DNA of 64,000 bases from Acidobacteriota bacterium (lineage in GTDB: Bacteria; Acidobacteriota; Vicinamibacteria; Vicinamibacterales; CAVVIG01): contig JAYTXA010000059.1 of the NCBI GenBank assembly GCA_043743165.1, positions 70,816 to 134,815 on the forward strand. Direction: 5' to 3'. The notes beneath the pieces are model-generated. The model searched no databases. It saw nothing but the letters and a program-made list of their open reading frames with translations, and was not told the origin of the DNA. Made by a program: the position numbers and the translations under genes. Below, in pieces: positions 9,476-49,457 of the stretch. The stretch's first letter is position 1, and each line of letters starts with the position of its first letter.

Positions 9476-9482
9476 GGCTGCC

Positions 9483-9767
9483 ATGATGACGATGATGTCG
9501 ATGCAGGATGGTCTCGTGACACTCATCGCCCTGGGTGCGGGCGCCATCCTCCTGCGCCGCGTGCTCGGCTTCGCCAGGAGCTCCGGCGACTCGCCGTGTG
9601 CGCACTGCTCGTCCTCGCCCTCGAAACCCTCCGTTGCCGCTATGGGAAGCAGCTCGAACACGACCGTCTATCCGCTCACGCTCGTCCGCCCCGCCGGCAG
9701 CGCGCCACGATCGGCGTCGGCCGCCACGGCAACGGGTCCGGCGCCCGGCCGTTCCTGCCACTCGTAG
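9483..9767 (+). CDS. FeoB-associated Cys-rich membrane protein-like
   Basis: Internal ATG of track ORF 9423..9767, 8 nt after the feoB stop. The sequence MMTMMSMQDGLVTLIALGAGAILLRRVLGFARSSGDSPCAHCSS is one TM helix, then a basic stretch, then CxxC. The tail is longer than is typical for this family. Confidence 0.5.
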   Translation: MMTMMSMQDGLVTLIALGAGAILLRRVLGFARSSGDSPCAHCSSSPSKPSVAAMGSSSNTTVYPLTLVRPAGSAPRSASAATATGPAPGRSCHS

Positions 9768-9931
9768 ACCGCGCTCCCTTCACTCGTCGGCTCGGCGTTC
9801 GGCTCCCTCGGTCCCACCAACCATTCTGACCAACGTGGCAGAATGGAACCCTGTACCGTTCACCCTCCCCCGCCGGCCTCACCGATACCGTCGCGCCGCT
9901 CGCCGGCCGCGCTCCGTGGTCGACCGTTGGG

Positions 9932-13222: not shown

Positions 13223-14737
13223 ATGAGATTCGACGATTACCACACCGGCACGTTCTTCGACGAAATGTTCGAGCCCGGTGGCGCGCCGCGCCCCGCCGCT
13301 CGCGCCCTCGCCCATTTCATCGAATCGATGTCCGACGGCGAACTGCTGCATCGACAGCTGTCGGCCGAGCGGGCACTGATGCACATGGGGATCACCTTCA
13401 ACGTCTACGGCGACACCTCCGGCACCGAGCGGATCTTTCCGTTCGACCTGGTGCCCCGCATCGTGGCCGCCTCGGAGTGGAACTGGATCGAGAGCGGGCT
13501 CAAACAGCGCATTCGCGCGCTGAACCTGTTCATCGACGACATCTACCACGACCAGAACATCATCAAGGACGGCGTCATCCCCGTCGACGTCGTCAAGACG
13601 GCGAGCAGCTTCCGCAAGCAGTGCGTCGGGCTGAATCCGCCGGGCGGCGTGTGGTGTCACGTCACCGGAACCGACCTCGTTCGCAATAGCGACGGACAGA
13701 TTTATGTCCTCGAAGATAACCTGCGCTGTCCGTCGGGCGTGTCGTACGTGCTCAAGAACCGCGTCGTGATGAAGCGGACGTTCCCGCAGGTGTTCGAGTC
13801 GTCGCGCATCCGGCCAGTCGACGACTACCCCGGGCGCCTACGCGACACGCTCGAGGCGATGTCGCCGACCGACGTCGAATCGCCGCGCGTGGTGGTGCTG
13901 ACGCCGGGCATCCACAACTCGGCCTACTTCGAGCACTCCTTCCTCGCCCAGCAGATGGGTGTGGAACTGGTGGAGGGACGCGACCTCGTCGTCTCGGACG
14001 GCTTCGTCTGGATGCGCACGACCAAGGGCTTCGAGCGAGTGGACGTGATCTACCGCCGCATCGACGACGACTTCCTCGACCCGAAATCGTTCAGGGCCGA
14101 CTCGGCGCTCGGCGTGCCTGGGCTGATGGACGTCTACAAGTCGGGTCGTGTCGCCATTGCCAACGCGCCGGGCACAGGCATCGCCGACGACAAGGTGGTC
14201 TACGTCTATGTGCCGAAGATGATTGCCTATTACCTCGGTGAAGAGGCGATCATCCCGAACGTCCCCACCTTCCTGTGTGCGCAGGAGGACGACCGCAAGT
14301 ACGTGCTGGCGCACCTGCCGGAACTGGTCGTCAAGGCGGCGAACGAGTCGGGTGGCTACGGCATGCTCGTCGGCCCGGCGTCCACAACTGACGAACAGGC
14401 GGAATTCGCGCGGCGCATCGCGGCCAACCCGCGCAACTACGTCGCGCAGCCGACGCTGTCGCTGTCCAGGGTGCCGACGATCATCGACGGCTCGTTCAAG
14501 GGGCGACATGTCGATCTGCGCCCCTACATCCTCTACGGCCGCGACATCTCCGTGCTGCCTGGCGGCCTGACGCGCGTGGCGCTGCGCGAAGGGTCGCTCG
14601 TCGTCAACTCGTCACAGGGCGGCGGCAGCAAGGACACGTGGGTCGTGGCCGACGAACCTCGGCACGATGACACGGCTGTCACTCCAACCGCTCCGCAGAA
14701 CCGCAGCGTCGCAACGCAGACGCAGAGGCAACGCTGA
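13223..14737 (+). CDS. circularly permuted ATP-grasp type 2 protein
   Basis: 504-aa ORF. The pattern ITFNVYGD...ERIFPFDLVPRI, YVLEDNLRCPSGVSY and ANAPGTGIADDK is typical of the COG2308 family. Confidence 0.85.
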   Translation: MRFDDYHTGTFFDEMFEPGGAPRPAARALAHFIESMSDGELLHRQLSAERALMHMGITFNVYGDTSGTERIFPFDLVPRIVAASEWNWIESGLKQRIRALNLFIDDIYHDQNIIKDGVIPVDVVKTASSFRKQCVGLNPPGGVWCHVTGTDLVRNSDGQIYVLEDNLRCPSGVSYVLKNRVVMKRTFPQVFESSRIRPVDDYPGRLRDTLEAMSPTDVESPRVVVLTPGIHNSAYFEHSFLAQQMGVELVEGRDLVVSDGFVWMRTTKGFERVDVIYRRIDDDFLDPKSFRADSALGVPGLMDVYKSGRVAIANAPGTGIADDKVVYVYVPKMIAYYLGEEAIIPNVPTFLCAQEDDRKYVLAHLPELVVKAANESGGYGMLVGPASTTDEQAEFARRIAANPRNYVAQPTLSLSRVPTIIDGSFKGRHVDLRPYILYGRDISVLPGGLTRVALREGSLVVNSSQGGGSKDTWVVADEPRHDDTAVTPTAPQNRSVATQTQRQR

Positions 14738-15741
14738 TGCTGGCCCGGGTAGCCGAATCGATCTACTGGATGAGCCGTTACGTCGAGCGCGCCGAGAACG
14801 TGGCGCGCTTCGTCGAGGTGAACCTGAACCTGATGCTCGACCTCCCCGCCGGGGCCGAGCAACAGTGGCAGCCGCTGGTGGCGACCACCGGCGACGCCGA
14901 GGCGTTCGCGAAGCACTACGGCGAAAGCACGCAGCAGAGCGTCATCCAGTTCCTCACCTTCGACGAGGAGAATCCCAACTCCATTCTCTCGTGCCTGCGA
15001 GCGGCGCGCGAGAACGCGCGCTCGGTGCGCGAGGTCATCTCGTCGGAGATGTGGGAGCAACTGAACAAGTACTACCTGACGGTGAACGCCGCCGCCGAGG
15101 ACCAGGGCAGCCTGACCGACCCGCAGGAACTGTTCGCGTCGGTCAGGATGTCGGGGCACCTGTTCACGGGCGTCACCGACGCGACGATGACACACAACGA
15201 GGGGTGGCAGTTCTGCCGCCTCGGACGCCTCCTCGAACGCGCCGACAAGACCTCGCGCATCCTCGACGTGAAGTACTTCCTCCTGCTGCCGACGTCTGAC
15301 GACGTCGGGACGACGTCCGACGACATCCAGTGGGCAGCCGTGCTCCGCTCGGCCAGCGCCTTCGAGATGTACCGGAAGACGCATGGCCGCATCGCCCCCG
15401 AGCGCATCGTCGAGTTCCTGCTGCTCGAACGCGACTTCCCGCGCGCCATCCAGTACTCGCTGACCCACGCCCGCGAGGCAATTCACGCCATTTCCGGCAC
15501 GCCGGTCGGCATCGTCCGCTACCAGGTGGAACGGTTGCTCGGCGAGATCTGCTCGGAACTGGCCTATGCCCGCGTCGAGAGCATCATCGCGGCCGGCCTG
15601 CACGAATACCTGGACGGCCTGCAGACGAAGGTGAACCAGATCGGCATCGGCGTTGCTGAGGCATTCTTCGCAGCGCGCGCGCTGCCGCCGGTCCGGCGGA
15701 AGTCGAGGGGACGCACCTCTTCCGGTCAACCGGCGGTGTGA
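14737..15741 (+). CDS. alpha-E domain protein
   Basis: 334-aa ORF starting MLARVAESIYWMSRYVERAENVARF (alpha-E signature). Its start overlaps the stop of the ATP-grasp gene. Confidence 0.85.
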   Translation: MLARVAESIYWMSRYVERAENVARFVEVNLNLMLDLPAGAEQQWQPLVATTGDAEAFAKHYGESTQQSVIQFLTFDEENPNSILSCLRAARENARSVREVISSEMWEQLNKYYLTVNAAAEDQGSLTDPQELFASVRMSGHLFTGVTDATMTHNEGWQFCRLGRLLERADKTSRILDVKYFLLLPTSDDVGTTSDDIQWAAVLRSASAFEMYRKTHGRIAPERIVEFLLLERDFPRAIQYSLTHAREAIHAISGTPVGIVRYQVERLLGEICSELAYARVESIIAAGLHEYLDGLQTKVNQIGIGVAEAFFAARALPPVRRKSRGRTSSGQPAV

Positions 15742-15762
15742 CAGACACGAGGCCACCTGACC

Positions 15763-16584
15763 ATGCATCTCCGCGTCGGCTATGAACTGATCTACGACTG
15801 TCCGCAGCCGACGCCGATGATGCTGATGCTCAACATCCACCATTCGCGCGCCAACGACATCCGGCAAGCCGATGTGCTGCAGACCACGCCCGTCGTGCCG
15901 CGCACCACCTACCGCGACGGGTTCGGCAACTGGTGCACCCGGCTCGTCGTGCCGCAGGGACGCACGGTGCTGACCGCCACGGGCGTCGTCTGGGACTCAG
16001 GCCTGCTCGAGTCGATGGTTACGTCGGCCCGATCGACTCCGGTGGAGGATCTGCCGGAGGAATGCCTCGTCTTCCTGCTCGGCAGCCGCTACTGCGAGAC
16101 CGATCGCCTGTCGGACACCGCCTGGTCGCTGTTCGGCCACACGCCTGGCGGCGCCCTCCGCGTGCAGGCGATCTGCGATTTCGTGCACGAACACGTCACC
16201 TTCGCCTACGAGGATGCGCGCTCGACGCGGTCCGCGTGGGAAGCGTTCAACGAACGGAAGGGTGTGTGCCGTGACTTCGCGCACCTGGCGGTCACGCTCT
16301 GCCGCTGCATGAACATCCCCGCCCGGTATTGCACCGGCTACCTCGGCGACTCGGGCACGCCGCCGCCGCACGGCGTGATGGACTTCGCCGCCTGGTTCGA
16401 AGCGTTCGTCGACGGACGCTGGCAGACCTTCGATGCCCGTAACAACGTGCCGCGCATCGGCCGTGTCCTCATCGCACGCGGGCGCGACGCCACCGACGTC
16501 GCCATCAGTAACGCGTTCGGTCCGAACACGCTGGTCGGTTTCAGGGTGTGGACCGATGACGTACAGTTGGGCGCCGAGCAGTAG
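15763..16584 (+). CDS. transglutaminase-like cysteine peptidase family protein
   Basis: 273-aa ORF with catalytic-core pattern [28 protein letters not shown]...[19 protein letters not shown]. Confidence 0.85.
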
Positions 16585-21023: not shown

Positions 21024-21785
21024 TCAGGTCGGGATGCCGAGCAGGTCGAGCACACCACACACGAACGTCAGCGGATGCGGCGGACAGCCCGGCACGTAGA
21101 GCGTCGGCGCCAACCGTTCGAGGAACCCGCGATCGAGAGCCGGCGAGCCGTCGAACGGTCCTCCCGCTATGGCGCAGGCGCCCACGGCAATCACCAGCTT
21201 CGGCGCCGGCATCGCGTCCCAGCACACCTGCAGCGCGCTGGCCATGTTGCGCGTGATCGGCCCGGTCAGCACCAGGCCATCGGCGTGTCTCGGCGACGTC
21301 ACGAAGTCGATGCCCCATCGCCCGATGTCGAAGTTGACGTTGCTCAGGGCGCTCACTTCCAGTTCGCACGCGTTGCAGCCGCCCGCAGACACAGACCGCA
21401 GCTTGAGCGACCGGCCGAACCGCTGATGCAGCGCCGCCGACACCTGCAGCGGCTCGGGAACGGGCCGTGCGCTGCCGATCACGAGCCCCTCCCGAATGGC
21501 GCTCGCCAGCCTGAACACGTTCGACGAGGACAACGTCTGCGTCGGGCACGCCGCGATGCAGTCGCCGCACATCGCGCAGCGCCCGGGGTCGATGCGCACC
21601 GCGTCCGGGCCCTGGCGCAGCGCAATCGCCTGCGTCGGGCACACCTGGACACAGGCGTCGCATCCTGCCTCGCACGGTGGGGAGCCGACGTGCGGCGCGC
21701 CCCGAAACCCCACGAGTTCGGCGCGACGCGGATCGGCGATGTACTGGCGCCCCTGCGAGGCCCTGACTCTGATCGACTTGAACAC
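21024..21785 (-). CDS. fused 2x[4Fe-4S] ferredoxin (HycF-like) / NuoB-HycG-like small subunit
   Basis: GTG at 21785 gives MFKSIRVRASQGRQYIADP... Contains CEAGCDACVQVCP and CAMCGDCIAACP, then the NuoB-type ligands GGCNACELE, GACAIAGGP and VPGCPP. The track ORF 21024..21956 over-extends into the upstream gene. Confidence 0.8.
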   Translation of the reverse strand: MFKSIRVRASQGRQYIADPRRAELVGFRGAPHVGSPPCEAGCDACVQVCPTQAIALRQGPDAVRIDPGRCAMCGDCIAACPTQTLSSSNVFRLASAIREGLVIGSARPVPEPLQVSAALHQRFGRSLKLRSVSAGGCNACELEVSALSNVNFDIGRWGIDFVTSPRHADGLVLTGPITRNMASALQVCWDAMPAPKLVIAVGACAIAGGPFDGSPALDRGFLERLAPTLYVPGCPPHPLTFVCGVLDLLGIPT

Positions 21786-21795
21786 GATGACGCCC

Positions 21796-23286
21796 CTAAA
21801 GATCGTTGCCGCAGTACGACAGGTCGAAGCTCTTGTTGCAGATCGGAAAGTCCGAGATCTCGTTGTTCCGCACGGCCAGCGCGAGCCCGAACCAGTTGAC
21901 GAGCGACGGATCCTGGACCTTGTAGTGCACCAGGCGGCCGTCGCTGCCGGTTTCAAGCACCTGCACTACGGGACCCCGACACCCTTCGCGCACCGACACA
22001 CACACCGTGTCCGGCCGCAGCACCGCGGACGTGTCGCGCACGCGCCGGTCGCAGCCAGGCAGGTGCAGGTTCGGCTCGTCGAGGACGCTCGTGACCCATC
22101 GCACCGATGCGTCCACCTCACGCATCCGCACCAGCGTCCGCGCCCAGCAATCGCCGTCCTGTTCGGTCACCGCCGCGACGGGATGCGCTGAGTAGAGCGC
22201 GCCGGGCTGGCTCTCCCGGGCATCCACTGCGAGGCCGCTCGACCGTGCCGCCACGCCGACAAGGCCGATGTCGACGGCTGCCTGTGCGGTGACGATGCCG
22301 ACGCCGCGCAGTCGGGCGCGGACGGTGCGGGCCGACAGCACGAGGTCGTTCACCTCCGCCATATCCTGGCTGAACGCCGCGAGCGTCGTCGACAGGTCGT
22401 GCCGCAGGGCGTCGGCAAGGCCGAACCGCGGACTGCCCGGCCGCAGCCATCCGCGTCCGAAACGGCTGCCGCAGATGCGCATGGTGGTGTTGATGATGGC
22501 CGTGCGCAGCCGTCCGTAGGTGGAGCTTCCCTGCAGGAAGGCGATGTCGGCCATCAGGCCGGTGAGCGTGGCCAGGTGCATGGCGACACGCTCGAGTTCG
22601 AGCGCGATGCCCGCAACTACCTCGGACGCCGCGCTGACCGTCGCCTCGCGCAGTGCGTCGACGGCGGCGCAGTAGCCCCACGCGTACGCGACGCTGCTGT
22701 CGCCGGCGATCGACTCGACGAGCGGCGCCAACGCGTGTACGGGCCTGGTCAGCAACCGCGCCTCCACGCCTCGGTGCTGATAGCCGAGTTGAACCTCGAG
22801 GAGGTGTACCTGCTCGCCGTGACACATGAAGCGGAAGTGCCCGGGTTCGGTCACGCCGGCGTGAATCGGGCCGACACCAACCTCGTGGACCTCCGGGCCC
22901 CTCACCGAGAAGAACGGGTGTTCGCGCATGCGCTGCTGGCGCACGCCCTCGTAGCGCACCGGCTTCAGCCACGGATGTCCGTCGGGCACAATCCCCGTCT
23001 GCTCCCACAACTCGCGCTCGAACATCTGCACGGCTGGGAATCGCGGCGTGAGCGAGGGAAACGACACCTCCGACGCCGCCTGCCCGCGCAGCAGCTCCAT
23101 CGGGCCTCCGGCCCGCTCGAGCACCGCCGTCGTCACGACGCCGCCATTCGTATCCGGTCGTCCGAACAGCGTGACGACCCTGGCGCCGGCCTCGAGGCGC
23201 TGTTCGATGAGACGCGCCCACGACGCGAGCTCGTCGAGTGGACGGCCACGAGCCGGGAAAAGGAGCACGGGTTGGTTGGTGACCAT
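21796..23286 (-). CDS. NuoC/NuoD-HycE-like 'large subunit' lacking the Ni-Fe cysteine ligands (Ehr-type)
   Basis: ATG 23286 (MVTNQPVLLF...) lies within track ORF 21796..23898. Contains VGPIHAGVTEPGHFRF. The L1 position reads ESIAGDSSVAY and the C-terminus reads SDFPICNKSFDLSYCGNDL. Confidence 0.8.
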   Translation of the reverse strand: MVTNQPVLLFPARGRPLDELASWARLIEQRLEAGARVVTLFGRPDTNGGVVTTAVLERAGGPMELLRGQAASEVSFPSLTPRFPAVQMFERELWEQTGIVPDGHPWLKPVRYEGVRQQRMREHPFFSVRGPEVHEVGVGPIHAGVTEPGHFRFMCHGEQVHLLEVQLGYQHRGVEARLLTRPVHALAPLVESIAGDSSVAYAWGYCAAVDALREATVSAASEVVAGIALELERVAMHLATLTGLMADIAFLQGSSTYGRLRTAIINTTMRICGSRFGRGWLRPGSPRFGLADALRHDLSTTLAAFSQDMAEVNDLVLSARTVRARLRGVGIVTAQAAVDIGLVGVAARSSGLAVDARESQPGALYSAHPVAAVTEQDGDCWARTLVRMREVDASVRWVTSVLDEPNLHLPGCDRRVRDTSAVLRPDTVCVSVREGCRGPVVQVLETGSDGRLVHYKVQDPSLVNWFGLALAVRNNEISDFPICNKSFDLSYCGNDL

Positions 23287-24719
23287 CAGCGTCCGCCTAT
23301 CGACTGCGCCACCTGCTGCAGCAGGGCGGTGATGGGCGCCGGCGTGTAGACGCCGAGCAGAATCAGCGCGGCGACAAACCCCAGCTTCGGCACGGCCGTC
23401 ACCAAGGTCTCGGTTCCCGCGCGCCCTTCGCGCTCGGACGGCCCCCAGATCATGGGGAAGATCGAGCGACCGGTGGCGACGAAGATGACGCTGAGCGTCG
23501 CGCACATCAGCGTGAACACGATGAGGTTCCCCACCTGCACGATCCCGGAGAGGATAAGCATCTCCCCCATGAAGCTGCCGAAGGGCGGAAAGCCGAGCAG
23601 CGCGAAGATGCCGACCGCGAACAGCAGGCCCGAGAACGGGAGCACGCGGATGACGCCGCTCAGCGCCTTCACCTCGTTGGTGTGATACACGGCCCGCAGG
23701 CGGCCAGCCGTGAGGAACAGGAGGGCTTTCACGAAGGCGTTGCTGACGATGTAGAGCACGACGCCGTAGGCAGCGGCCTTGCCCACCGACAGACCGATGG
23801 CGATGACGCCGGACGAACTGACGCACGCGTAGGCGATGAGCCGCTTGTAGTTGCGTGAGGCCATCACCTGCATCGCCGCCACCATCAGCGACAGGCACCC
23901 CATCAGCAGCAGTTCGTACGACACGAACTCGGTGTCGCGGCCGCGGAACACCTGGAGCACACGGAACACCGCCACCACGCTGATGTTGAATTGCACGGCG
24001 GCCAGCAAGGCGCTGGTGCTGGTCGGCGCGGCTTCGTAGGCCTCGGGCATCCAGCTGTAGAGCGGCGCCAGGCCCAGCTTGCTGCCGAGTCCGAACAGCA
24101 TCAGCGCCAGCCCCAGCCGCTGCCAGCTATCGGAGGGCGAGGCGATGCCGGCCGCCATCTCGTCGAGCGCGAAGCTGAGTTCCAGCCCGCGCAGGTGCGC
24201 CGAACGGGTGAGGCACATGATGCCGAGGAACGTGAGGGCCAGCGACATGCTCGAGTACAGCAGGTAGTGCCAGGCCACTTTGCGTGGAGCCACGGTGTCG
24301 CCCTGCGCCACCAGGGGCGCCGCGCACAGCGTGGTGAGTTCGATGAATGCCCACAGCAGCAGCAGGTTATTGGCGAGCACGCCGGCGTTCATCGCCACCA
24401 TGAAGGCCAGCGTGAGGAGGGCTCGCGGCAGCAGGTTGTCGGCCACCACGCGCGACGTGCTCGCCCGCGACGACATGTAGACGCTGATGCCGAGGAACAC
24501 GCTGTTGATCACCAGGATGAACAGCAGCGACGTCGCATCCAGCACGAAGTAGCGCCGGCCGAAGTAGAGCGGCAGCGCGTCGAGCGGTTCGCTGAGGAAC
24601 AGCCCGACGGACGCGAGCAGGTCGGCAACCGCCAGCGCCACGAGCGCGGGACCGACCCAGAGCCGCCGCGTCGGCAGCACGGGCGCCGTCCCCATCGCCA
24701 CCGCGCCGACCTCACTCAT
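23286..24719 (-). CDS. NuoN/M-HyfF-like antiporter-type membrane subunit
   Basis: ATG 24719 (MSEVGAVAMG...) lies within track ORF 23286..25049. Polytopic, with GLAPLYSWMPEAYEAAP and AYACVSSSG motifs. ATGA overlap with the upstream gene. Confidence 0.8.
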   Translation of the reverse strand: MSEVGAVAMGTAPVLPTRRLWVGPALVALAVADLLASVGLFLSEPLDALPLYFGRRYFVLDATSLLFILVINSVFLGISVYMSSRASTSRVVADNLLPRALLTLAFMVAMNAGVLANNLLLLWAFIELTTLCAAPLVAQGDTVAPRKVAWHYLLYSSMSLALTFLGIMCLTRSAHLRGLELSFALDEMAAGIASPSDSWQRLGLALMLFGLGSKLGLAPLYSWMPEAYEAAPTSTSALLAAVQFNISVVAVFRVLQVFRGRDTEFVSYELLLMGCLSLMVAAMQVMASRNYKRLIAYACVSSSGVIAIGLSVGKAAAYGVVLYIVSNAFVKALLFLTAGRLRAVYHTNEVKALSGVIRVLPFSGLLFAVGIFALLGFPPFGSFMGEMLILSGIVQVGNLIVFTLMCATLSVIFVATGRSIFPMIWGPSEREGRAGTETLVTAVPKLGFVAALILLGVYTPAPITALLQQVAQSIGGR

Positions 24720-25315
24720 AGGTGCCCTACGAGCGGAGCGGCAGCGGTCGGGTCTGGCGTCGCGATGAGCCAGGTGCCAACCGCCACGGTAAGCAGGTAG
24801 ACCAGCATCAACGCGACGTGCACCGGCAACGGCCACGGCTCTGGCTGGAGCGACTCGAACAGCGCCAGGCCGTTCTCCATGAACAGCACGGCCACGAACT
24901 GGACTGGCGGCGAATCGTTGGTCGACAACAGCAGGAGCGACACCGCCACCGTCGCACCGACCACACCAAGTGTCAGCGCCTGCCGGTCGGACATGGCCGG
25001 CGCCGCGAATTCGAACGCCAGCACGACGAGCGCCATGCCAATCGCCCACGCAAACAGGTTCGACGGCATCAGGTCGAGGTTCGGCTCGAGGCGACGCTGG
25101 ACGGTGTGGCGAATCGCCGCCGGCGCCACGACGGCGCGGAGTGCCAACACCTCGATGAGCGCCACCACGGTGTGGGTCGAGAGCTCACCGCGCACGCCGA
25201 GGTTCCAGGCCAGTGCGGCTCCCTGCGCGGCCAGCCAGAACGGCGCCGACCGGAGCTTGCCGAAGAACACCGGCATCACCACCGCCACCAGGAAGATGAG
25301 CGACGGAAGGGTCAC
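24716..25315 (-). CDS. HyfE/NuoK-like small membrane subunit
   Basis: GTG 25315 overlaps the upstream stop (GTGA). The 199-aa hydrophobic protein VTLPSLIFLVAVVMPVFFGKL... is the C-terminal part of track ORF 24716..26257. Confidence 0.65.
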   Translation of the reverse strand: MTLPSLIFLVAVVMPVFFGKLRSAPFWLAAQGAALAWNLGVRGELSTHTVVALIEVLALRAVVAPAAIRHTVQRRLEPNLDLMPSNLFAWAIGMALVVLAFEFAAPAMSDRQALTLGVVGATVAVSLLLLSTNDSPPVQFVAVLFMENGLALFESLQPEPWPLPVHVALMLVYLLTVAVGTWLIATPDPTAAAPLVGHL

Positions 25316-26238
25316 GGCATCCTCGAGAGCCAGCCGGCCACGCCGAGGCAGGCCGCGGCGGTGAGCGAAGCCAGCATCAGGAAGCTCGGCACCGAGCGCA
25401 GCCGCATGCGGGCGATGAGCGACTCGACACAGCCGACAGCCACGCCGACGCCGGCCATCGCCACGAGCGCGAAGAGCGTGCCCGATACCGGGCTCACCCG
25501 CGGGTCGAAGGGATTGACGAGCGCCGCGATCAGGCCGGCGTAGATGGTCATCTTCACGGCCGCCGCGTACTGCATGGCTGCCAGCGCCGGACCACTGTGG
25601 TCGAGCAGCATCACCTCGTGCACCATCGTCAGTTCGAGGTGGGTCTGCGGGTCGTCGACCGGCAGGCGCGCGGCCTCGGCCTGCAACAGCACGAACAGCA
25701 CGCCCACCACAGGCGCCGCAAGCCACGGGAACGACGCCGCGTGATGCCACTGCCCCATCAACCCGGCGAAGCTGGCCTGCCCCGTTGCCAGCATGGCCGC
25801 GCCGAGCAGGAAAAACAGCGCCGGCTCGATGGCAATCGTGAACAGCGCCTGGCGGGCCACCCCCATGCCTTCGAAGGCGCTGCCCACGTCCATCGCGGAC
25901 AGCATCAGGAACAGGCGCGCCAGGCCGAGCGCGTAGGCGAAGAGCAGGAAGTCGTGGTCGAAGCGCAGCGGCGCGACGTCGCCCAGGATGGGCGCCACAA
26001 GAGCGGCCACCAGTGTGGCGGCGAGCACCACCCAGGCACCTGCGAAGAATAGTGGCGTACTGGTGGTGCTGTAGACCGGCTGCTTGGTCAGCAACCGCCG
26101 CAGGTCCCATGCCGACTGCGTCAGCCCGGGGCCTTTGCGTCCCGCCCAGCGCGCCTTCGTCCGGTTCACGACCCCGACGAGGAGGAACGGTATCGCCAGC
26201 ACGATGACGATGTGGACGGCTCCGAGCAGCAGGGTCAC
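25312..26238 (-). CDS. NuoH/HycD-HyfC-like membrane subunit
   Basis: 308-aa polytopic ORF with RKGPGLTQSAWDLRRLL, EGMGVARQ and LPVDDPQTHLELTMVHE, typical of formate-hydrogenlyase subunit 4/NuoH relatives. Confidence 0.85.
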   Translation of the reverse strand: MTLLLGAVHIVIVLAIPFLLVGVVNRTKARWAGRKGPGLTQSAWDLRRLLTKQPVYSTTSTPLFFAGAWVVLAATLVAALVAPILGDVAPLRFDHDFLLFAYALGLARLFLMLSAMDVGSAFEGMGVARQALFTIAIEPALFFLLGAAMLATGQASFAGLMGQWHHAASFPWLAAPVVGVLFVLLQAEAARLPVDDPQTHLELTMVHEVMLLDHSGPALAAMQYAAAVKMTIYAGLIAALVNPFDPRVSPVSGTLFALVAMAGVGVAVGCVESLIARMRLRSVPSFLMLASLTAAACLGVAGWLSRMP

Positions 26239-28238
26239 TGCAGCGGCCCGCCCACAAGCACGACGAGCCCGGCCATGGCGATCACCACGATGAGCGCTGC
26301 GGCAAAGGCGATACGCGGGTCATCTTCCCGCAGCGCGCTGGACAGCTCGTGTGCCGAGGCGTCGCCGTTGGCGATGACGGCGAAGAGGCGTCGCTCCACT
26401 GCGTCGACGCAGGTGGTGACGAGATAGCTATCAACCGGGAAGTATCCTGCCGGCGCCTTCTGCCGTCGCAGCGTCAGCACCACGCCGCTCACCCGCGACT
26501 GGAGGTCGGCAGAGAAACTGGAGCCGGTGTACTGCATGCGCGCGCTCGGCGAGTCGTCGCCGCAGGCCCATGTGGCACTGGTTGGAGCCGGACGCTTCGA
26601 GACGCGGCTGAGAGCCCAGACAAGCGCGGCCACGCCCAGCGACACGGCGCCGGAGATGAGGCCAACCCTGGTCAGGGTGGCCCCCAGCCGAGTCAGTACG
26701 TCGGTGCGTGCGCCGGGAAGCGCCGCGAGGGCAAGGTCAGTCGCTCCGCGCACGAGGGCGAGGCCGAGGGACGGCATCACACCCAGCAGAACGACCGCCA
26801 CGCCGTGGATGCCCATCGGCAGCAGCATCCAGGCGTTCACCTCGTGGGCCGCAGGTACCGACGTGTCGCGTGCGCGCCCGAGGAACACCACGCCGAAGGC
26901 GCGCGTGATGCTGAACGCCGACACCGCGCCGACGAAGGCGAGCGCGGCCGCGCCAGCCCCCAGCGCCACCCTGGCCCAGACCCCGATCGGTTCGCCCGTG
27001 AAAAGCCCCGAGTAGACGACGAACTCACTGGTGAATCCGTTGAGGGGCGGCATGCCCGAGATGGCGATGCCGCCAAGCAGGAAACTGAACGACGTCCACG
27101 GCATGAGCCGCAGCAGTCCGCCGAGGCGCTCCACGTCCACCGTATGCACGGCGCGATAGACGGCCCCTGCGGCATAGAACAACTGGCACTTGAAGAAGGC
27201 GTGGTTGAGGACGTGCAGGAGTCCGCCCGCGAATCCGAGCGCCACGAGCGGCGCGCTGTGCCAGGCCAGCCCGAGACAACCGACGCCGAAGCCAATGCCG
27301 GCGATGCCGACGTTCTCGGTCGACGAGTACCCGAGCAGCCGTTTCAGGTCGCGCTGGCCGATGGTGTAAAGCGCACCAATCACTGCGGACAGCAGCGAGA
27401 AGCCGATCAGGAACCATCCCATCCAGGCATCGGGCGTTCCGATGAGCAGCAGCACGCGCACCAGGGCATAGAGGCCGGCCTTGTGAATCACCCCCGACAT
27501 GAGCGCCGACACGTGAGCCGGAGCGGCGGCGTGGGCGCGCGGCAGCCACGAGTGGAACGGGAAGAAGGCCGACTTCAGGCCGAAGCTGGTCACCAGCAGC
27601 AGGAACACCAGGTTGCGTTCCGCGCCGGGATGGCCGCGCAGCCAGTCGCCGAAACTGAGGAGGTCCCACGACAGCGTGTGGGCGTACAGGATCATGAACG
27701 CTGCAACGAGGAAGATCAGGCCGAAGTGGGTCGACACCAGGTAGTTGAACCCGGCGAAGCGCACTTTCTGGTTTGTGTAGTCCCAGATCACCAGGAGCCA
27801 CGCAGCGATCGCCGCGGTCTCCCAGCCGAGCAGGAAGACGAGGGCGTGGTCGCCGGTGTAGACCAGCACGAACGACAGCGCCGTGAGGTTGAGCAGCGCG
27901 AAGTGCCAGCCGAGGTGCCTGGCTGAATCCAAGTGCGACCGCAGGTAGCCGACGGCGTAGATGCTGCCGAGCAGCGTCATCGGCAGCGACCACACCAGGA
28001 AGAACGCGCCGAGCGCGTCCAGCCGCACGCGCATCGTTCCCATCGGGTAGGCCCAGGGCAGTTCACCCGAGACTGGCGCACCACCGAGCAGCACCGGCAC
28101 GACGGCGGTGAGCACCAGCAGCATGGCGACGCCCTGCGACACGAGGCCACACGCGACACGCGCCCGATTGGCGACCGGCAATAGGCAGGCCGCCGCGCCC
28201 ACTAGCAGCACGACGACGGCCACGATCAGCGCACTCAT
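26235..28238 (-). CDS. NuoL/HyfB-like antiporter-type membrane subunit
   Basis: 667-aa polytopic ORF with FPFHSWLPRAHAAAPAHVSALMSGVIHKAGLY (proton-antiporter family signature). Confidence 0.85.
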   Translation of the reverse strand: MSALIVAVVVLLVGAAACLLPVANRARVACGLVSQGVAMLLVLTAVVPVLLGGAPVSGELPWAYPMGTMRVRLDALGAFFLVWSLPMTLLGSIYAVGYLRSHLDSARHLGWHFALLNLTALSFVLVYTGDHALVFLLGWETAAIAAWLLVIWDYTNQKVRFAGFNYLVSTHFGLIFLVAAFMILYAHTLSWDLLSFGDWLRGHPGAERNLVFLLLVTSFGLKSAFFPFHSWLPRAHAAAPAHVSALMSGVIHKAGLYALVRVLLLIGTPDAWMGWFLIGFSLLSAVIGALYTIGQRDLKRLLGYSSTENVGIAGIGFGVGCLGLAWHSAPLVALGFAGGLLHVLNHAFFKCQLFYAAGAVYRAVHTVDVERLGGLLRLMPWTSFSFLLGGIAISGMPPLNGFTSEFVVYSGLFTGEPIGVWARVALGAGAAALAFVGAVSAFSITRAFGVVFLGRARDTSVPAAHEVNAWMLLPMGIHGVAVVLLGVMPSLGLALVRGATDLALAALPGARTDVLTRLGATLTRVGLISGAVSLGVAALVWALSRVSKRPAPTSATWACGDDSPSARMQYTGSSFSADLQSRVSGVVLTLRRQKAPAGYFPVDSYLVTTCVDAVERRLFAVIANGDASAHELSSALREDDPRIAFAAALIVVIAMAGLVVLVGGPLQ

Positions 28239-28244
28239 CGCGCG

Positions 28245-28595
28245 TCAGCGCTTCCGTGCCTGCCGCTGCAACTCGCGCAGCAGCCCCTGCGAGCCGACGA
28301 GATGGTTGTTGAAGATCTGGCGCGCTGCCTTCAGCAGGTCGCCGATGAGCGGGTCGCGCACGGTGTAGCGCACGCTCGTCCCCGCCTTGCGGCCCGACAC
28401 GATGTTCTTCGTCCGCAACACCGCCAGCTGCTGCGACACCACCGGCTGCTCGAGGCCGAGCGCCTCCTGCAGTTCCTGTACGCTGTGCTCGCCCTGCAGC
28501 AGCACCTCGAGGATCGCGATGCGGACCGGGTGCGCCAGGGCGCGAAAGAACTCCGCCTTGAAGTGCTGGAGATCGCCAGCAATCGATTTATCCAT
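28245..28595 (-). CDS. ArsR/SmtB-family transcriptional regulator
   Basis: ATG 28595 (MDKSIAGDLQHFKAEFFRALAHPVRIAILEVLLQGEHSVQELQEALGLEQPVVSQQLAVLR) is a wHTH protein. It lacks the ELCVCDL-type metal site. It lies 7 nt upstream of the hyfB-like gene. Confidence 0.9.
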   Translation of the reverse strand: MDKSIAGDLQHFKAEFFRALAHPVRIAILEVLLQGEHSVQELQEALGLEQPVVSQQLAVLRTKNIVSGRKAGTSVRYTVRDPLIGDLLKAARQIFNNHLVGSQGLLRELQRQARKR

Positions 28596-28601
28596 GTATT
28601 C

Positions 28602-28633
28602 AAATATTACATCACAGCGATATTTACCGACAA
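28602..28633 (-). promoter_or_regulatory. candidate promoter/operator of the arsR-led operon
   Basis: On the minus strand: TTGTCG (28633-28628), 18 nt, TAATAT (28609-28604), 8 nt, then ATG. The inverted repeat AAATAT-N12-ATATTT (28602-28625) overlaps the -10 and spacer. This is the only AT-rich patch in the area. Confidence 0.45.
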
Positions 28634-28636
28634 GGC

Positions 28637-29368
28637 TCAGGCGTGACGGACGCCGCTGGAGGCGGCACCCCAGCCGCGCTTGCGCCACAGGCGCAACACG
28701 CACGGGAACCGCACGTCGACGGCAATCTCCTCGTAGCTGCGCGGCAGTGGCCCGCCGAAGCCGTTGTAGGTGATGATCAGGGTGCCGGCGGGCGCCGTCG
28801 CCAGCAGGTACGACATCGCGAACAGGTCGCGCGCCATGGTCTGGTTGTTGAACGGCACGCCGAGTTCGGCGTAGCGGGGCGAGTCGAAGTCGTACTCGCC
28901 GAACGGGTTGTAGAGGTAGTAGGCATCGGCGACTGGCGTCGGCAGCGCGCCGAAGTCGCCAGAAAGGAACGTCACCCGCTCGGCGACATCGAAGACGCCG
29001 GCCAGGCCGCGCGCCGTGTCGACCAGCGATGCGCGCTGCTCCACGCCGATGAACCGGCACGATGTCAGCAACGCGGCGGCGACGCAGAACTTGCCGGTGC
29101 CGGACCCGATGTCCACCACCGTCCGCACCTGCGTTTCGCGCAGCCAGGCGGCCGCCCGCACCGCCACGGGCATCGGCGTCCAGTACTCGCCCGACCGCTC
29201 CCGCAGCGCCTCGGGCAGCCACCGGTCGAAGGCGTCGTCCACCAGGGTCTGCCCGGCCTGCAGGGCATCGGCCACGCGCCTCGCGGCACGCCGCGCCGCA
29301 CCGTGGTCGGTCGGACGGCTGGATCCGGGAACATGTGTCTGCGACACGACTCGATTATGTGTCCACAT
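28637..29368 (-). CDS. class I SAM-dependent methyltransferase
   Basis: ATG 29368 lies within track ORF 28637..29761. Motif I is VVDIGSGTGKF, followed by the FIGVEQ acidic loop. The exact start is uncertain. Confidence 0.7.
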   Translation of the reverse strand: MWTHNRVVSQTHVPGSSRPTDHGAARRAARRVADALQAGQTLVDDAFDRWLPEALRERSGEYWTPMPVAVRAAAWLRETQVRTVVDIGSGTGKFCVAAALLTSCRFIGVEQRASLVDTARGLAGVFDVAERVTFLSGDFGALPTPVADAYYLYNPFGEYDFDSPRYAELGVPFNNQTMARDLFAMSYLLATAPAGTLIITYNGFGGPLPRSYEEIAVDVRFPCVLRLWRKRGWGAASSGVRHA

Positions 29369-30325: not shown

Positions 30326-31552
30326 CTACGACACCGGTTCGATCTTCAGGACCGCGCCGTCGTCTTCCTCGGTCAGGACGTAGATCAGGCCGTCGGCGCC
30401 CTGACGCACGTCGCGTACGCGCTGATGCAGGTCCTCGAGCATCAGCTCACGGCGCTGCTCCCAGAGCTTGTCGTTGAACACGATGCGCTCGATATGGCCC
30501 GTGCCAGGGATGCGTCCTCGCTGGATGCTGCCGACGATGATGTTCCCCTTCCACTTCGGGAAGCGGTCGCCGGTGTAGAACAGCATGCCCGACGGGGTGA
30601 TGCCGGGGTTCCAGGTGATCCAGGCCGGCTCCATGGCGCCAGTCAGCGGCGGCATCGGCGAGCCGTCGTTGTCGCGGCCGTAGCCGTTGGTCGGCCAGCC
30701 GTAGTTGCCGCCAGCCTTCAGGATGTTGATCTTGTCGCCACCCAGAGGCCCGAGTTCCCCGTGGAAGATCTGCCCGGTCGCCGGGTTCACCGCCAGCCCG
30801 TGGTGATCGCGGTGACCCACCGTGAAGATCTCGGGCCGAGCCCCGGCCTTCCCCACGAACGGATTGTCGGCGGGTACCGTGCCGTCGTCTTTCAGGCGCA
30901 GCACCTTGCCGAAGATTGTGTCCGTGTTCATCGCGTCGGGCAGGCGCTGCGCACCGCCAACGGTGATGTAGATCAGGCCGTCGTTGCCAAACGCGATGCG
31001 CGAGCCGCCGGTGCGGACGGCGTTGCCGGCGTACAGCTCTTGCACGTTCGACAACCCGGTCCCCTCGTAGCGTCCGCGCGCCAGCGCCAGCGTGTACGTC
31101 TCGCCGCCGAGTGGCTTGTGGTAGGTGAAGTAGATCAGCCGGTTCTCGGCGAACTTCGGATGCACCGCCATGTCGAGCATGCCGGTCGTTCGCGTCGTGC
31201 GCATGACCGGCAGCCCGGTGAGCGGCGTCGGGTCGAGCACGCCGTTGCGGATGGCCAGCACCTGCCCCGTCGGTCGCACCCCAACCAGAATGTCGCCGTT
31301 CGGCAGCGGCAGCAGACCCCATGGGCGCTGGATGCCTCGCGCGATGACCGTCACCTTGATCTTCTGCTCGAACGTGTCGTATTCACGCGGCGCAGTCGGC
31401 AGCGGGAACTTTGGGGCCGCCGGGTTCGCGGCCGGCTGCGCCAGTGCAGACGGCGCGAGCGAAGCGATGAGAAGGGCGGCAAGGGCCAGCCACCTTCGGA
31501 CATACGTTGTGGTCACAGCGGTGTTCTCCAATAGCGAGGCAGTCATAATCAT
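30326..31552 (-). CDS. PQQ-dependent sugar (glucose/sorbosone) dehydrogenase family, secreted
   Basis: 408-aa ORF with signal-like RRWLALAALLIASLAPSALA, plus motifs GKVLRLKDDGTVPADNPF, FTVGHRDHHGLA and GGNYGWP. Confidence 0.85.
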   Translation of the reverse strand: MIMTASLLENTAVTTTYVRRWLALAALLIASLAPSALAQPAANPAAPKFPLPTAPREYDTFEQKIKVTVIARGIQRPWGLLPLPNGDILVGVRPTGQVLAIRNGVLDPTPLTGLPVMRTTRTTGMLDMAVHPKFAENRLIYFTYHKPLGGETYTLALARGRYEGTGLSNVQELYAGNAVRTGGSRIAFGNDGLIYITVGGAQRLPDAMNTDTIFGKVLRLKDDGTVPADNPFVGKAGARPEIFTVGHRDHHGLAVNPATGQIFHGELGPLGGDKINILKAGGNYGWPTNGYGRDNDGSPMPPLTGAMEPAWITWNPGITPSGMLFYTGDRFPKWKGNIIVGSIQRGRIPGTGHIERIVFNDKLWEQRRELMLEDLHQRVRDVRQGADGLIYVLTEEDDGAVLKIEPVS

Positions 31553-43700: not shown

Positions 43701-43823
43701 GCCAGCGGCACCGGGTTGCGCCTCGTGCGGGTCCGGTTTCGGACCGGCCGGGTTGCAGGCGGTGCCGGTCAGCGACTGGCAGATCAGTTCTTCGAGACCA
43801 CGTTCGCTCGTGTCACTCGGCAT
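40785..43823 (-). CDS. hsdR: type I restriction enzyme R subunit
   Basis: 1012-aa ORF with helicase motifs (HSAGSGKS, VIDEAHSSQGG DEAH box, FTATP) and a type I HsdR N-terminal nuclease region. SD-like GAGGA upstream. Confidence 0.93.
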   Translation of the reverse strand: MPSDTSERGLEELICQSLTGTACNPAGPKPDPHEAQPGAAGWLPGHPDDYDREYTVDIAQLLAFLVVTQPEAFDGLNIAEEGPSRRKFLARLQGEISKRGVIDVLRHGVKDGPHHVDLFYGTPSPGNEPAAKRYHQNRFSASRQLRYSRDETQRALDLALFVNGLPVATLELKNSLTKQTADDAVEQYKRDRDPREKLFEFGRCAAHFAVDDHEVRFCTHLKGKSSWFLPFNLGWNDGAGNPPNPAGLKTDYLWTRVLTREGLTDILENYAQIVETKDEKTGKKKSVQIWPRYHQLDVVHKLLADVSEHGAGQRYLVQHSAGSGKSNSIAWLAHQMIGLRKDEAAVFDSVIVVTDRRILDKQIRDTIKQFAQVSATVGHAEHSGDLRKFIEGGKKLIITTVQKFPHILDEIGNEQRGRRFAIVIDEAHSSQGGQASAAINMALSEAGTKNDDETTEDRINRIMESRKLLPNASYFAFTATPKNKTLEIFGRALPPVDGKVRHVAFHSYTMKQAIDEGFILDVLRNYTPVESYYRLAKTVESDPEFDTRRASKKLRRYVESHDHAIRLKAEIMVDHFHEQVVALTKVGGQARAMVVTSSIERAVQYFVAIRAYLTERKSPFKAIVAFSGEHENRFDELKDAKGAKLKDYSEAVLNGFPSSKIADKIQDDPYRFLICADKFQTGYDEPLLHTMYVDKMLSGIKAVQTLSRLNRAHPQKHDTFVLDFMNDADAIRESFADYYRTTLLSEETDPNKLHDLKAALDGYEVYSPEQVDAFVERYLEGAERPKVDPVLDVCRAAYVALGEDQQVDFKGKAKAFVRAYGFLASILPYTNGDWEKLSIFLNFLIAKLPAPIDEDLSRGILDTIDMDSYRAEKKAVQRIQLPDTDAEIEPVPTSGGGRKPEPALDRLSNIIKAFNDQFGNIPWSDADRVHKLITEDIPSRVAADTAFQNAKKNSDKQNAKIEHDKALARVMTAVLKDDTELFKQFMDNESFRRWMTDTVFKLTFEGESAHSS

Positions 43824-43832
43824 CGTCCGTCC

Positions 43833-47160: not shown

Positions 47161-47220
47161 GGCCCTAATCAGGCCCCATGATAAACGCAGCGTTTAACAT
47201 GGGCCAGCAGAACGGCCATG

Positions 47221-49383: not shown

Positions 49384-49457
49384 TGCGGACTTGAGTATAC
49401 GGTTACCTCGCGAGGGTGATCGCGGCGACGCGTGAACGAGCCGCACCGGCGGCGACG

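Follow-up and report, generated by a model that had tools for sequence, protein, structure and literature searches.

Complexes of the Ehr type (energy-converting hydrogenase-related) are kin of the group 4 hydrogenases, in particular those of group 4f, and of complex I; they do not carry the nickel–iron (NiFe) cysteines and their function is unknown (PMC3569383, PMC10284858, PMC6349859). The subject of this study is a locus for such a complex in a 64,000-nucleotide (nt) stretch of DNA from an Acidobacteriota bacterium (assembly GCA_043743165.1, contig JAYTXA010000059.1, positions 70,816 to 134,815), referred to throughout as the window. Seven co-directional genes lie on its minus strand at positions 21024-28595, and together they almost certainly make up an intact operon that encodes an Ehr complex, of the subtype with a long small subunit, and not a hydrogenase; a Cys-less ArsR repressor of the Rv0081 type is in the lead. 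It adds one member to a known and functionally unsolved family, the same family to which Rv0081-Rv0087 of Mycobacterium tuberculosis belongs.

Gene content of the locus

The gene boundaries rest on our own translation and on independent gene calls for the identical public contig (L001), which agree with each other. Three junctions are four-base overlaps (GTGA at 26235-38, GTGA at 25312-15 and ATGA at 24716-19), and the EhrD/EhrL junction at 23286 is a one-base TGATG overlap. Six nucleotides separate the stop codon of arsR from the next ATG, and a gap of 10 nt lies ahead of ehrS. All seven open reading frames (ORFs) are intact and translationally coupled. An initial annotation of the window had reported these tight overlaps, and a gene order of arsR, NuoL/HyfB, NuoH/HycD, HyfE, NuoN/HyfF, NuoCD/HycE and ferredoxin-NuoB; the overlaps and coordinates are real, and every subunit could be matched to its counterparts. 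Its overall span of 21024-28636 needs trimming, in that the genes lie where they were placed, arsR coding ends at 28595 and 28596-28636 is upstream region.

The features of the locus are collected in table 1, in which EhrA (NuoL-like), EhrC (HyfE-like), EhrL and EhrS are the subunit names in use for Geobacter (PMC7894505). Pfam and NCBIfam place the subunits in the expected superfamilies, none of them at an equivalog cut-off. A consensus scan of the operon found no promoter, and its single terminator-like match falls below chance expectation.

Table 1. Features of the Ehr locus, with positions in the window (aa, amino acids).
Feature	Position	Strand	Remarks
AT-rich region upstream of arsR	28596..28640	-	inverted repeat and weak -10-like TAATAT; candidate promoter/operator
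arsR, 116 aa, Cys-less ArsR/SmtB regulator of Rv0081 type	28245-28595	-	Pfam HTH_5, NCBIfam NF033788
EhrA, HyfB/NuoL-like antiporter-like subunit, 667 aa, with C-terminal extension	26235-28238	-	Pfam Proton_antipo_M
EhrB, HycD-HyfC/NuoH-like membrane subunit, 308 aa	25312-26238	-	Pfam NADHdh, 1.6e-28
EhrC, HyfE-like small membrane subunit, 199 aa	24716-25315	-	family profile match to E. coli HyfE
EhrD, HyfF-like (NuoM/N class) antiporter-like subunit, 477 aa	23286-24719	-	Pfam Proton_antipo_M
EhrL, NuoC-NuoD/HycE-like large subunit, 496 aa	21796-23286	-	Pfam Complex1_30kDa and Complex1_49kDa
EhrL beta1-beta2 loop, residues 138-153, VGPIHAGVTEPGHFRF	22827..22874	-	hydrogenase-like; Thr146 at the place of complex I His38
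EhrL former L1 motif, residues 192-201, SIAGDSSVAY	22684..22713	-	HycE RVCGICGFAH: C to A194, C to S197, H to Y201, Asp196 gained
EhrL former L2 motif and C-terminus, residues 483-496, CNKSFDLSYCGNDL-COOH	21799..21840	-	HycE (I)GSLDPCYSCTDR: C to S490, C to G493
EhrS, ferredoxin-NuoB (HycF-HycG) fusion, 253 aa, GTG start	21024-21785	-	Pfam Fer4_7 and Oxidored_q6

Loss of the NiFe ligands in the large subunit

EhrL is related to the large subunits of group 4 hydrogenases. Its best sequence match in the Protein Data Bank (PDB) is E. coli HycE (7z0s_E, 1e-33 with HMMER), its identity to E. coli HyfG/HycE is 26-27%, and no match to Pfam NiFeSe_Hases was found in it. An AlphaFold2 model of the protein, used for fold confirmation only, has a predicted local distance difference test (pLDDT) score of 89.9 and a predicted template modelling (pTM) score of 0.93; its best fold match is again HycE (7z0s_E, template modelling (TM) score 0.88), with E. 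coli NuoCD second.

The ligand columns were read from two alignments that agree, that of HMMER to 7z0s_E and one made by MAFFT with the HycE sequence of the E. coli genome. ESIAGDSSVAY of EhrL is aligned to DRVCGICGFAH of HycE, and KSFDLSYCGNDL to SLDPCYSCTDR, with DLSYCGNDL standing opposite DPCYSCTDR. The four columns that hold the NiFe cysteines are A194, S197, S490 and G493 in EhrL (ASSG), none of them Cys, and EhrL fails both the L1 motif RxCGxCxxxH and the L2 motif DPCxxCxx(R/H) of group 4 [NiFe] hydrogenases. The protein stops at the position of the maturation cleavage-site Arg of HycE and has no C-terminal tail. The correspondences that had been drawn by hand in the initial annotation (C to A, S, S and G; H to Y) are the same in the alignment to the real HycE, as is the end of the protein without a protease-cleaved tail. 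Because the nickel-iron catalytic site is lost, the complex should be unable to make hydrogen.

The quinone head-group ligands of complex I are not retained either. In an alignment to Thermus thermophilus Nqo4 and HycE, with residue numbers counted along it, the quinone ligand His38 of Nqo4 is replaced by Thr146, beside a two-residue insertion of the hydrogenase type, and Tyr87 by an invariant Gly195. The beta1-beta2 loop in which Thr146 lies is nearly invariant in the family and is a region of low confidence in the model.

Conservation of the substituted site

More than 7000 clusters at 90% identity match EhrL at E<=1e-10. The best 120 of these are all at least 63% identical to it and belong to Variovorax, Polaromonas, other Burkholderiales, Rhodanobacter and Vicinamibacterales. 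Family-wide comparisons used representatives at 50% identity (the best 150 of 4733 clusters, from which 107 full-length proteins were aligned) and loci from a scan of species-representative genomes (the best 80 of at least 600 stretches, from more than 10 phyla), the latter being a biased sample.

Cysteine at all four ligand columns (CCCC) was found in five of the 107 full-length representatives. These five are about 34% identical, carry the motifs CGxC ... LCYSCxDR in a shared PLINKSF context, and end in PLINKSFELCYSCTDR with no C-terminal extension past the L2 motif; to judge by their sequences, they are probably group 4f hydrogenases. About 100 of the 107 have a replacement signature, E[ST]x[ACS]GD[ST]..[AG][HY] together with P[LI]CNKSF[DN]LSY[CSA]GxDL at the C-terminus, which was derived in this analysis and is not a published criterion. 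EhrL, with GDS and its CNKSFDLSYCGNDL-COOH terminus, carries this signature. In nearly all loci whose large subunit could be read, VGP[VI]HAG[VI]IEPGHFRF, E[ST]xxGD[ST] and SDFP[LI]CNKSF[ND]LSYCGxDL-COOH are almost unchanged. Nearly all loci, over more than 10 phyla, also keep the order B-D-E-F-L-S, in which the HyfB-, HycD-, HyfE- and HyfF-like genes are followed by those for the large subunit and a small subunit about 250 aa long. The near-invariance of the replacement signature across phyla argues that the pocket is functional and not decayed: on the evidence of the sequences, the ligands of EhrL are replaced under purifying selection.

EhrL is 69-76% identical to homologues in metagenome-assembled genomes (MAGs) of Vicinamibacterales, which are Acidobacteriota (P0006, P0014), and about 70% identical to betaproteobacterial homologues (Variovorax P0017, P0025 and P0030). 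Sequence comparison suggests that the cassette has moved across phyla by horizontal transfer.

A sister lineage (L085-L087), with a nucleotide identity of about 83-88%, has deleted arsR, the HyfB-, HycD- and HyfE-like genes and the 5' part of the HyfF-like gene. Relative to this lineage, the ratio of non-synonymous to synonymous substitution rates (dN/dS) is 0.20 for L, 0.14 for S and 0.105 for PurL. The deletion breakpoint corresponds to position ~23564 of the window, with which the sister lineage shares its synteny of PurL, major facilitator superfamily (MFS) and FeoB genes. What is left is a 91-aa remnant of the HyfF-like subunit (95% identical), an intact large subunit of 496 aa and an intact small subunit of 253 aa; an MtrB/PioB porin gene and a multihaem cytochrome c gene stand directly upstream. 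The protein of the sister lineage is found on many contigs from several samples.

The small subunit and its iron–sulfur clusters

EhrS finds MbhJ (4.7e-27), HycG (1.8e-26), HycF (2.4e-8) and MbhN (1e-7) in the PDB. The C-terminal domain aligns with MbhJ and HycG, and the N-terminal domain with HycF, MbhN and NuoI-type proteins; EhrS is 36-38% identical to E. coli HyfI/HycG, and its N-terminal domain is 35% identical to HycF, with weaker likeness to HyfH and HyfA. All 12 iron–sulfur (Fe-S) cysteines are present. Eight of them (Cys 38, 42, 45 and 49; Cys 70, 73, 76 and 80) form the 2x[4Fe-4S] pattern of a HycF/NuoI-like ferredoxin domain, and the proximal-cluster cysteines C137, C140, C204 and C234 align with the ligands of MbhJ and HycG. 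From these domain alignments, EhrS is a HycF-HycG fusion and is therefore expected to carry three [4Fe-4S] clusters. The initial annotation had spoken of four NuoB-type cluster cysteines: the four cysteines are indeed kept, but their pattern, read from GGCNACE, is the CxxC of hydrogenases and not the tandem-Cys N2 type of complex I.

Among 63 small subunits of the family, 42 have both ferredoxin-type motifs and the proximal-cluster cysteines, and a further 12 have one ferredoxin-type cluster together with the proximal cluster. A short-S subtype has a small subunit of 159-180 aa with the proximal cluster only, and its large subunit ends PL(I/A)NKSFN(L/Q)SY(S/A)GxDL. Cassettes of this kind are found in L090 (Mycobacterium riyadhense), L005 (13221-19000, minus strand) and L006 (13409-21341). 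The short-S and long-S subtypes coexist in some proteobacterial genomes, and the mycobacterial complex is of the short-S subtype.

The membrane arm

The best NCBIfam match of EhrA is hydrogenase 4 subunit B, at 432 bits and under the cut-off of 667, and that of EhrD is hydrogenase 4 subunit F, likewise under its cut-off. The 199-aa EhrC taken alone has no match in Pfam or NCBIfam. A profile of 51 syntenic homologues, EhrC included, matches residues 8-215 of E. coli HyfE with 82.5 bits and a shared (M/L)ENG motif, and a homologue of EhrC sits between the HycD- and HyfF-like genes in 55 of 58 loci; the earlier HyfE-like call, invisible to both databases, is thereby borne out over the full length of HyfE.

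Acidic and basic residues are conserved in all three larger membrane subunits. Over 58 members, each of E140, K222, K253, E308, H342, H346, K350 and E405 of EhrA is kept in 91% or more, the majority of them without exception; E127, K214, K292, K331 and E386 of EhrD are kept in at least 92% of 61 members. EhrB has nine residues that are invariant over 61 members (R129, E138, R191, D195, H200, E202, H207, E208 and E272), and E188 is kept in 98%. The Glu of transmembrane helix (TM) 5 and the Lys residues of TM7 and TM12 that are typical of MrpA/MrpD are present in both antiporter-like subunits, as E140, K222 and K350 in the HyfB-like and E127, K214 and K331 in the HyfF-like protein. The relay residues are invariant or nearly so over about 60 loci from more than 10 phyla, and the ion-translocating arm is therefore under strong selection. 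The membrane part consists of the HyfB-, HycD-, HyfE- and HyfF-like subunits only, capped by EhrL and EhrS, and equivalents of MrpE, MrpF and MrpG are absent from the cassette.

Maturation and partner genes

A tblastn search with E. coli HypA-F, HycI, HycB, HycH, HydN and FdhF found none of them in the 64-kb window, the sole signal being a weak HypE match inside PurL, and Pfam scans of the other large ORFs of the window revealed no hydrogenase-related genes. Both searches agree with the initial annotation, in which hyp, hycI and formate dehydrogenase genes were absent from the window. The same holds more widely: no Hyp, HycI, FdhF, HycB, HycH or HydN homologue was detected by tblastn within ~10 kb of about 90 related loci. 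The pairing of formate dehydrogenase (FDH) with Ehr that has been proposed for Margulisbacteria (PMC6349859) is not general in this sample, none of whose loci has an FdhF homologue within this distance. The cassette comprises six structural genes only, with no NuoA, NuoJ, NuoK, NuoE, NuoF or NuoG, and when neighbouring genes were clustered over 80 loci only the HyfE-like subunit and an HTH_17-EIIA regulator recurred.

The regulator and its mycobacterial counterpart

The ArsR protein contains no Cys and scores below all metal-sensor equivalog cut-offs of NCBIfam. Its best relative in the PDB is Rv0081 (6jmi), matched over the full length with an E-value of 3.4e-18, followed by BigR at 5e-12. 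It shares the SQQL recognition-helix residues with Rv0081 and, as judged by eye, has no alpha5 ligands. Rv0081 is a Cys-less autorepressor without a metal site that heads the hypoxia-induced rv0081-rv0088 operon; it autoregulates via an upstream inverted repeat, and the mycobacterial operon is under DosR and hypoxia control (bioRxiv 10.1101/465575). The M. tuberculosis locus has been described as an EHR complex of undetermined function, in an organism that lacks NiFe maturation genes (PMC6728331).

The parallel could be followed at the level of the whole operon through L090, the orthologous locus of M. riyadhense, whose first gene encodes a homologue of Rv0081 with 93% identity to the stretch used as query. 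This gene is followed by one for a NuoB-like subunit that is short (159 aa) and lacks a ferredoxin domain, and then by those for the HyfB-, HycD-, HyfE- and HyfF-like and large subunits. Identities between the L090 proteins and those of the window are 30-42% (ArsR 42%, subunits 30-40%). The large subunit reads ERISGDTSAAHAL, carries SGDT and ends NKSFNQSYAGNDL / PLANKSFNQSYAGNDL. A likeness to Rv0081-Rv0087 had been proposed in the initial annotation, and it is well founded: Rv0081 is the best solved relative of the ArsR protein, and L090 has all six subunits and the signature.

An inverted repeat upstream of arsR, AAATAT-N12-ATATTT (28602-28607 / 28620-28625), overlaps a weak -10-like TAATAT, and we infer by analogy that this AT-rich repeat is a candidate operator. 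No shared operator is evident between the window and L089, an ArsR-led locus in a Vicinamibacterales MAG.

The ArsR leader is lineage-specific and not family-wide. L089 has it; Variovorax-like genomes (L082, L083, L084 and L088; ~70% identity), and also L006 and L007, have a small RHH_9 (PF19839) gene in place of arsR. These Variovorax-like relatives also have an ACT-domain gene upstream of the cassette. L082-L084 have a tandem pair of Ehr cassettes, separated by a few kb in which a spermine-synthase-like gene lies, and the second cassette of L082 is preceded by its own small RHH_9 gene. At about 30 loci (within L009-L070), an HTH_17-PTS_EIIA_2 regulator abuts the first structural gene. This leader, found in Bacteroidota, Spirochaetota, Planctomycetota, Verrucomicrobiota and other phyla, is about 225-240 aa long, with HTH_17 at the N-terminal end and PTS_EIIA_2, which has a GIAIPH motif, at the C-terminal end, and is often translationally coupled to the cassette (gap of -3 to +4 nt); we know of no earlier description of it as a partner of Ehr.

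Comparison with known systems

The six-subunit set of the window is that of the Ehr complex of Geobacter sulfurreducens (GSU0739-0745), and the Geobacter-related loci L038, L075 and L077 have the same gene order and large-subunit signature. The Geobacter type differs in its large subunit, which is about 40% identical, in having one ferredoxin-type cluster motif (L038 and L075) and in its lead regulator. The M. tuberculosis Rv0081-Rv0087 locus, seen through L090, has a Cys-less ArsR head and all six structural homologues, as in the window, but places the small subunit first, at 159 aa and with no ferredoxin domain. With a large subunit that lacks the NiFe cysteines and a six-gene set, the window locus matches the published description of Ehr, and the assignment to Ehr in the initial annotation can be retained.

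Likeness to hydrogenase-4 (HyfA-J) and hydrogenase-3/formate hydrogenlyase (HycB-G) of E. coli, the best-characterised homologues, extends over the whole cassette: EhrA is 35% identical to HyfB, EhrB 30% to HyfC, EhrD 30% to HyfF, EhrL 26% to HyfG and EhrS 36% to HyfI, EhrC is related to HyfE by profile, and EhrS includes a HycF/HyfH-like domain. Unlike Hyf/Hyc, the locus lacks NiFe ligands, a C-terminal tail, HycI, a HyfA/HycB connector and FdhF; also absent are HyfD, the third antiporter-like subunit, and a sigma-54 regulator of the FhlA/HyfR kind, and the ferredoxin and NuoB-like parts are fused. The group 4f [NiFe] hydrogenases are the closest true hydrogenases to Ehr (PMC10284858). Their Ehf cluster, for example Desru_3260-3265 of Desulfotomaculum ruminis, has six genes (PMC3569383), as in the window, but all four cysteines are kept.

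The peripheral arm of the Pyrococcus furiosus MBS (formerly Mbx; 6u8y) and MBH (6cfw) complexes has the same NuoI-like, NuoB-like, NuoC and NuoD components as here, MbhJ and MbhL are among the best sequence matches of Ehr subunits, and the NuoD-like subunit of MBS, as in Ehr, no longer acts as a hydrogenase. Both archaeal complexes have a much larger membrane arm of the Mrp type, and the match to MbsL is weak and partial (2e-14, residues 118-404). Complex I shares homologous core modules with Ehr, a NuoCD fusion in E. coli and the relay residues of the antiporter-like subunits; NuoA, J, K, E, F and G, the His38/Tyr87 quinone ligands and the tandem-Cys motif are features of complex I that are absent from Ehr.

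In the literature searched, we found neither biochemical nor structural work on any Ehr complex. The reference analysis of Ehr is reportedly that of Marreiros et al. 2013; the replacement signature and the Fe-S losses are not claimed here as new, and may already be in that work.

Possible mechanisms

The mechanism that we favour, tentatively, is that of a ferredoxin-fed, reversible, ion-translocating oxidoreductase in which the rebuilt pocket of EhrL serves as acceptor site. Low-potential electrons from a soluble carrier of the ferredoxin or flavodoxin type, encoded elsewhere, would enter at the exposed HycF-like 2x[4Fe-4S] domain of EhrS and pass to its proximal [4Fe-4S] cluster. From there they would reach the former NiFe pocket of EhrL, a polar site lined by Asp, Ser, Thr, Tyr and Cys, with E191, D196, S197, S490, Y491, C492, D495 and the free C-terminal carboxylate as predicted lining. 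The acceptor reduced in this pocket would be something other than H+, and probably other than a quinone held in the manner of complex I. By way of the hydrogenase-type beta1-beta2 loop and of acidic loops in the HycD-like subunit, the accompanying change in redox and protonation state would reach the HyfE-like subunit and the two antiporter-like subunits, whose complete Glu/Lys relays would move H+ or Na+ across the membrane. The complex may equally run in reverse, using an ion gradient to generate a low-potential reductant. Expression is probably held off by ArsR bound to the AT-rich inverted repeat and, to go by the mycobacterial operon, is probably released when oxygen or redox conditions become limiting. 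We favour this mechanism because the wire of clusters is kept in most members, because the pocket and relays are invariant and because the characterised relatives are all oxidoreductases. To our knowledge, every characterised member of the superfamily (complex I, NDH-1, Ech, MBH and FHL) is an ion-translocating oxidoreductase with its catalytic site at the interface of NuoD- and NuoB-type subunits. The P. furiosus MBS is a non-hydrogenase member of the superfamily with another reductase chemistry.

Several observations weigh against a ferredoxin-fed oxidoreductase. Neither a donor nor an acceptor can be named, no redox partner gene is kept beside the cassette in the neighbour-gene clustering of 80 loci, and the pocket has no invariant redox-active residue, C483 and C492 being frequent but replaceable. 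Fe-S ligands have been lost in several groups. In five Bacteroidota members (L036, L052, L071, L072 and L081), a D/x/D/N pattern stands in place of the proximal cysteines, three or four of the proximal ligands being substituted in this subclade (C to D, C to A/Y or kept, C to D, C to N). In the ferredoxin domain of two Omnitrophota members (L029 and L070), no more than one Cys survives, and the short-S subtype (Mycobacterium and the second cassettes of L005 and L006) lacks this domain. The pocket signature and the membrane relays persist in all these variants. In the Bacteroidota and Omnitrophota groups they are largely unchanged, the exceptions being substitutions in the HyfF-like subunit (two in L029, one in L070 and one in L081); neither the HyfB-like nor the HycD-like subunit was recovered for L029. 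Since pocket and relays outlive the clusters, delivery of electrons through the wire would not be needed across the whole family. The deletion of the membrane arm in the sister lineage, moreover, argues that the system is dispensable.

The cluster losses would fit a redox-gated or non-redox transporter of the Mrp kind, in which the membrane arm is a secondary cation/proton antiporter and the former hydrogenase cap is its plug or gate; the polar pocket would then bind a proton, water or a cation, and the Fe-S clusters, where kept, would do no more than sense how reduced the ferredoxin pool is, with no net electron flux. Mrp antiporters work without any redox module. In keeping with such a transporter, several lineages have shed Fe-S ligands piece by piece and still have an intact pocket signature and Glu/Lys relays, no acceptor, donor or partner genes are conserved, and the residues gained by the pocket are carboxylates and hydroxyls, not redox-active groups. 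The cassette is, besides, always led by a dedicated regulator, often HTH_17-PTS_EIIA_2, and proteins of the EIIA(Ntr) type have a link with K+ and ion homeostasis. We nevertheless hold a transporter to be possible but on the unlikely side: 54 of 63 small subunits have an unbroken wire of two or more clusters, among them a distal cluster exposed at the surface, and such a wire would be costly for sensing alone, equivalents of MrpE, MrpF and MrpG are missing from the six-gene cassette, and we know of no characterised complex with a NuoB/NuoD-type module that is non-redox. A sharper version, which we consider unlikely, is that Ehr is no usual oxidoreductase at all: Asp196, Ser/Thr197, Ser490 and the C-terminal carboxylate would form a gate for a proton, cation or small ligand on an Mrp-like transporter, with the Fe-S wire as a dispensable sensor. 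Such a gate would explain the loss of clusters from complexes with an unchanged pocket, the absence of travelling donor or acceptor genes and the constant presence of a dedicated regulator.

The remaining alternatives stay closer to known enzymes. A ferredoxin:quinone oxidoreductase like complex I, with a cavity between EhrL, EhrS and the HycD-like subunit as in photosynthetic NDH-1 or Fpo-type complexes, would fit the presence of a NuoH-like subunit, the scores of EhrL on NuoD models and the rank of E. coli NuoCD as its second-best fold match. The host and its Variovorax, Polaromonas and Rhodoferax relatives are, furthermore, respiring, quinone-containing bacteria. It is an improbable reading all the same, as both ligands of the quinone head group in complex I are missing (Thr146 and Gly195 stand in their place), EhrS has the hydrogenase CxxC and no N2 tandem Cys, and NuoA, NuoJ and NuoK are absent. 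The family is also common in fermenters reported or known to be without quinone synthesis, including those of the Gastranaerophilales/Melainabacteria loci, and no quinone pathway was found in Ehr-carrying Riflemargulisbacteria (PMC6349859). A hydrogenase operon decaying by drift would account for the deletion from arsR into the 5' part of the HyfF-like gene in the sister lineage, and for a dN/dS of L about twice that of PurL; set against these are seven intact, translationally coupled ORFs, a signature of substituted motifs that is kept from Mycobacterium to Bacteroidota, the thousands of clusters noted above and invariant relay residues, which make decay very improbable. The conservation data effectively refute the reading as a decaying relic. 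Hardly credible at all is a cryptic hydrogenase that holds a metal centre on non-Cys ligands and is still active with H2. The HycE-like fold, the Glu147-Pro-Gly-His loop and the proximal cluster are retained as it would require, but all four ligand cysteines are gone, the five CCCC representatives are separate hydrogenase relatives, neither hyp nor hycI occurs in the window or beside any related locus, and M. tuberculosis has an Ehr locus without the NiFe maturation genes (PMC6728331).

Other features of the window

Some 2 kb upstream of arsR, the window has a gene for a glucose/sorbosone dehydrogenase of the pyrroloquinoline quinone (PQQ) type (30326-31552). L089 likewise has a PQQ dehydrogenase gene upstream of its cassette, a likeness that may be coincidence, and an alpha-carbonic anhydrase gene (9302-9861) directly downstream of the small subunit. 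On the other side of the operon, at 13223-16584, genes for a circularly permuted ATP-grasp protein, an Alpha-E protein and a transglutaminase-like protein are inserted, relative to L086, between the genes for the MFS and 358-aa proteins and PurL.

A type I restriction-modification locus occupies 40785-49446, with HsdR at 40785-43823, HsdM at 47221-49446 and an embedded Fic/DOC gene at 45970-47160. Its lower G+C content (0.60-0.64, against ~0.67 elsewhere) makes this stretch probably a mobile defence island. Three paralogues of about 915 aa on the minus strand (49458-52223, 55599-58337 and 60302-63061) combine an N-terminal Ser/Thr kinase with C-terminal PD40/WD40-like beta-propeller repeats.

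Significance

Soil aerobes, fermenters of the gut, metal reducers and mycobacteria all have Ehr complexes, which are very common and include that of the hypoxia-induced Rv0082-Rv0087 operon of M. tuberculosis. The locus in the window is one of thousands, and alone makes the question of Ehr function no more tractable; it does add a clean and complete example of the long-small-subunit subtype, tied by its regulator to the mycobacterial system. Seen across the family, what had appeared as a loss of ligands becomes a strictly conserved new site, and thus a defined target for mutagenesis and metal analysis. The natural variants that have lost Fe-S clusters, together with the lineage that has deleted the membrane arm, could tell a redox pump from a gated transporter.

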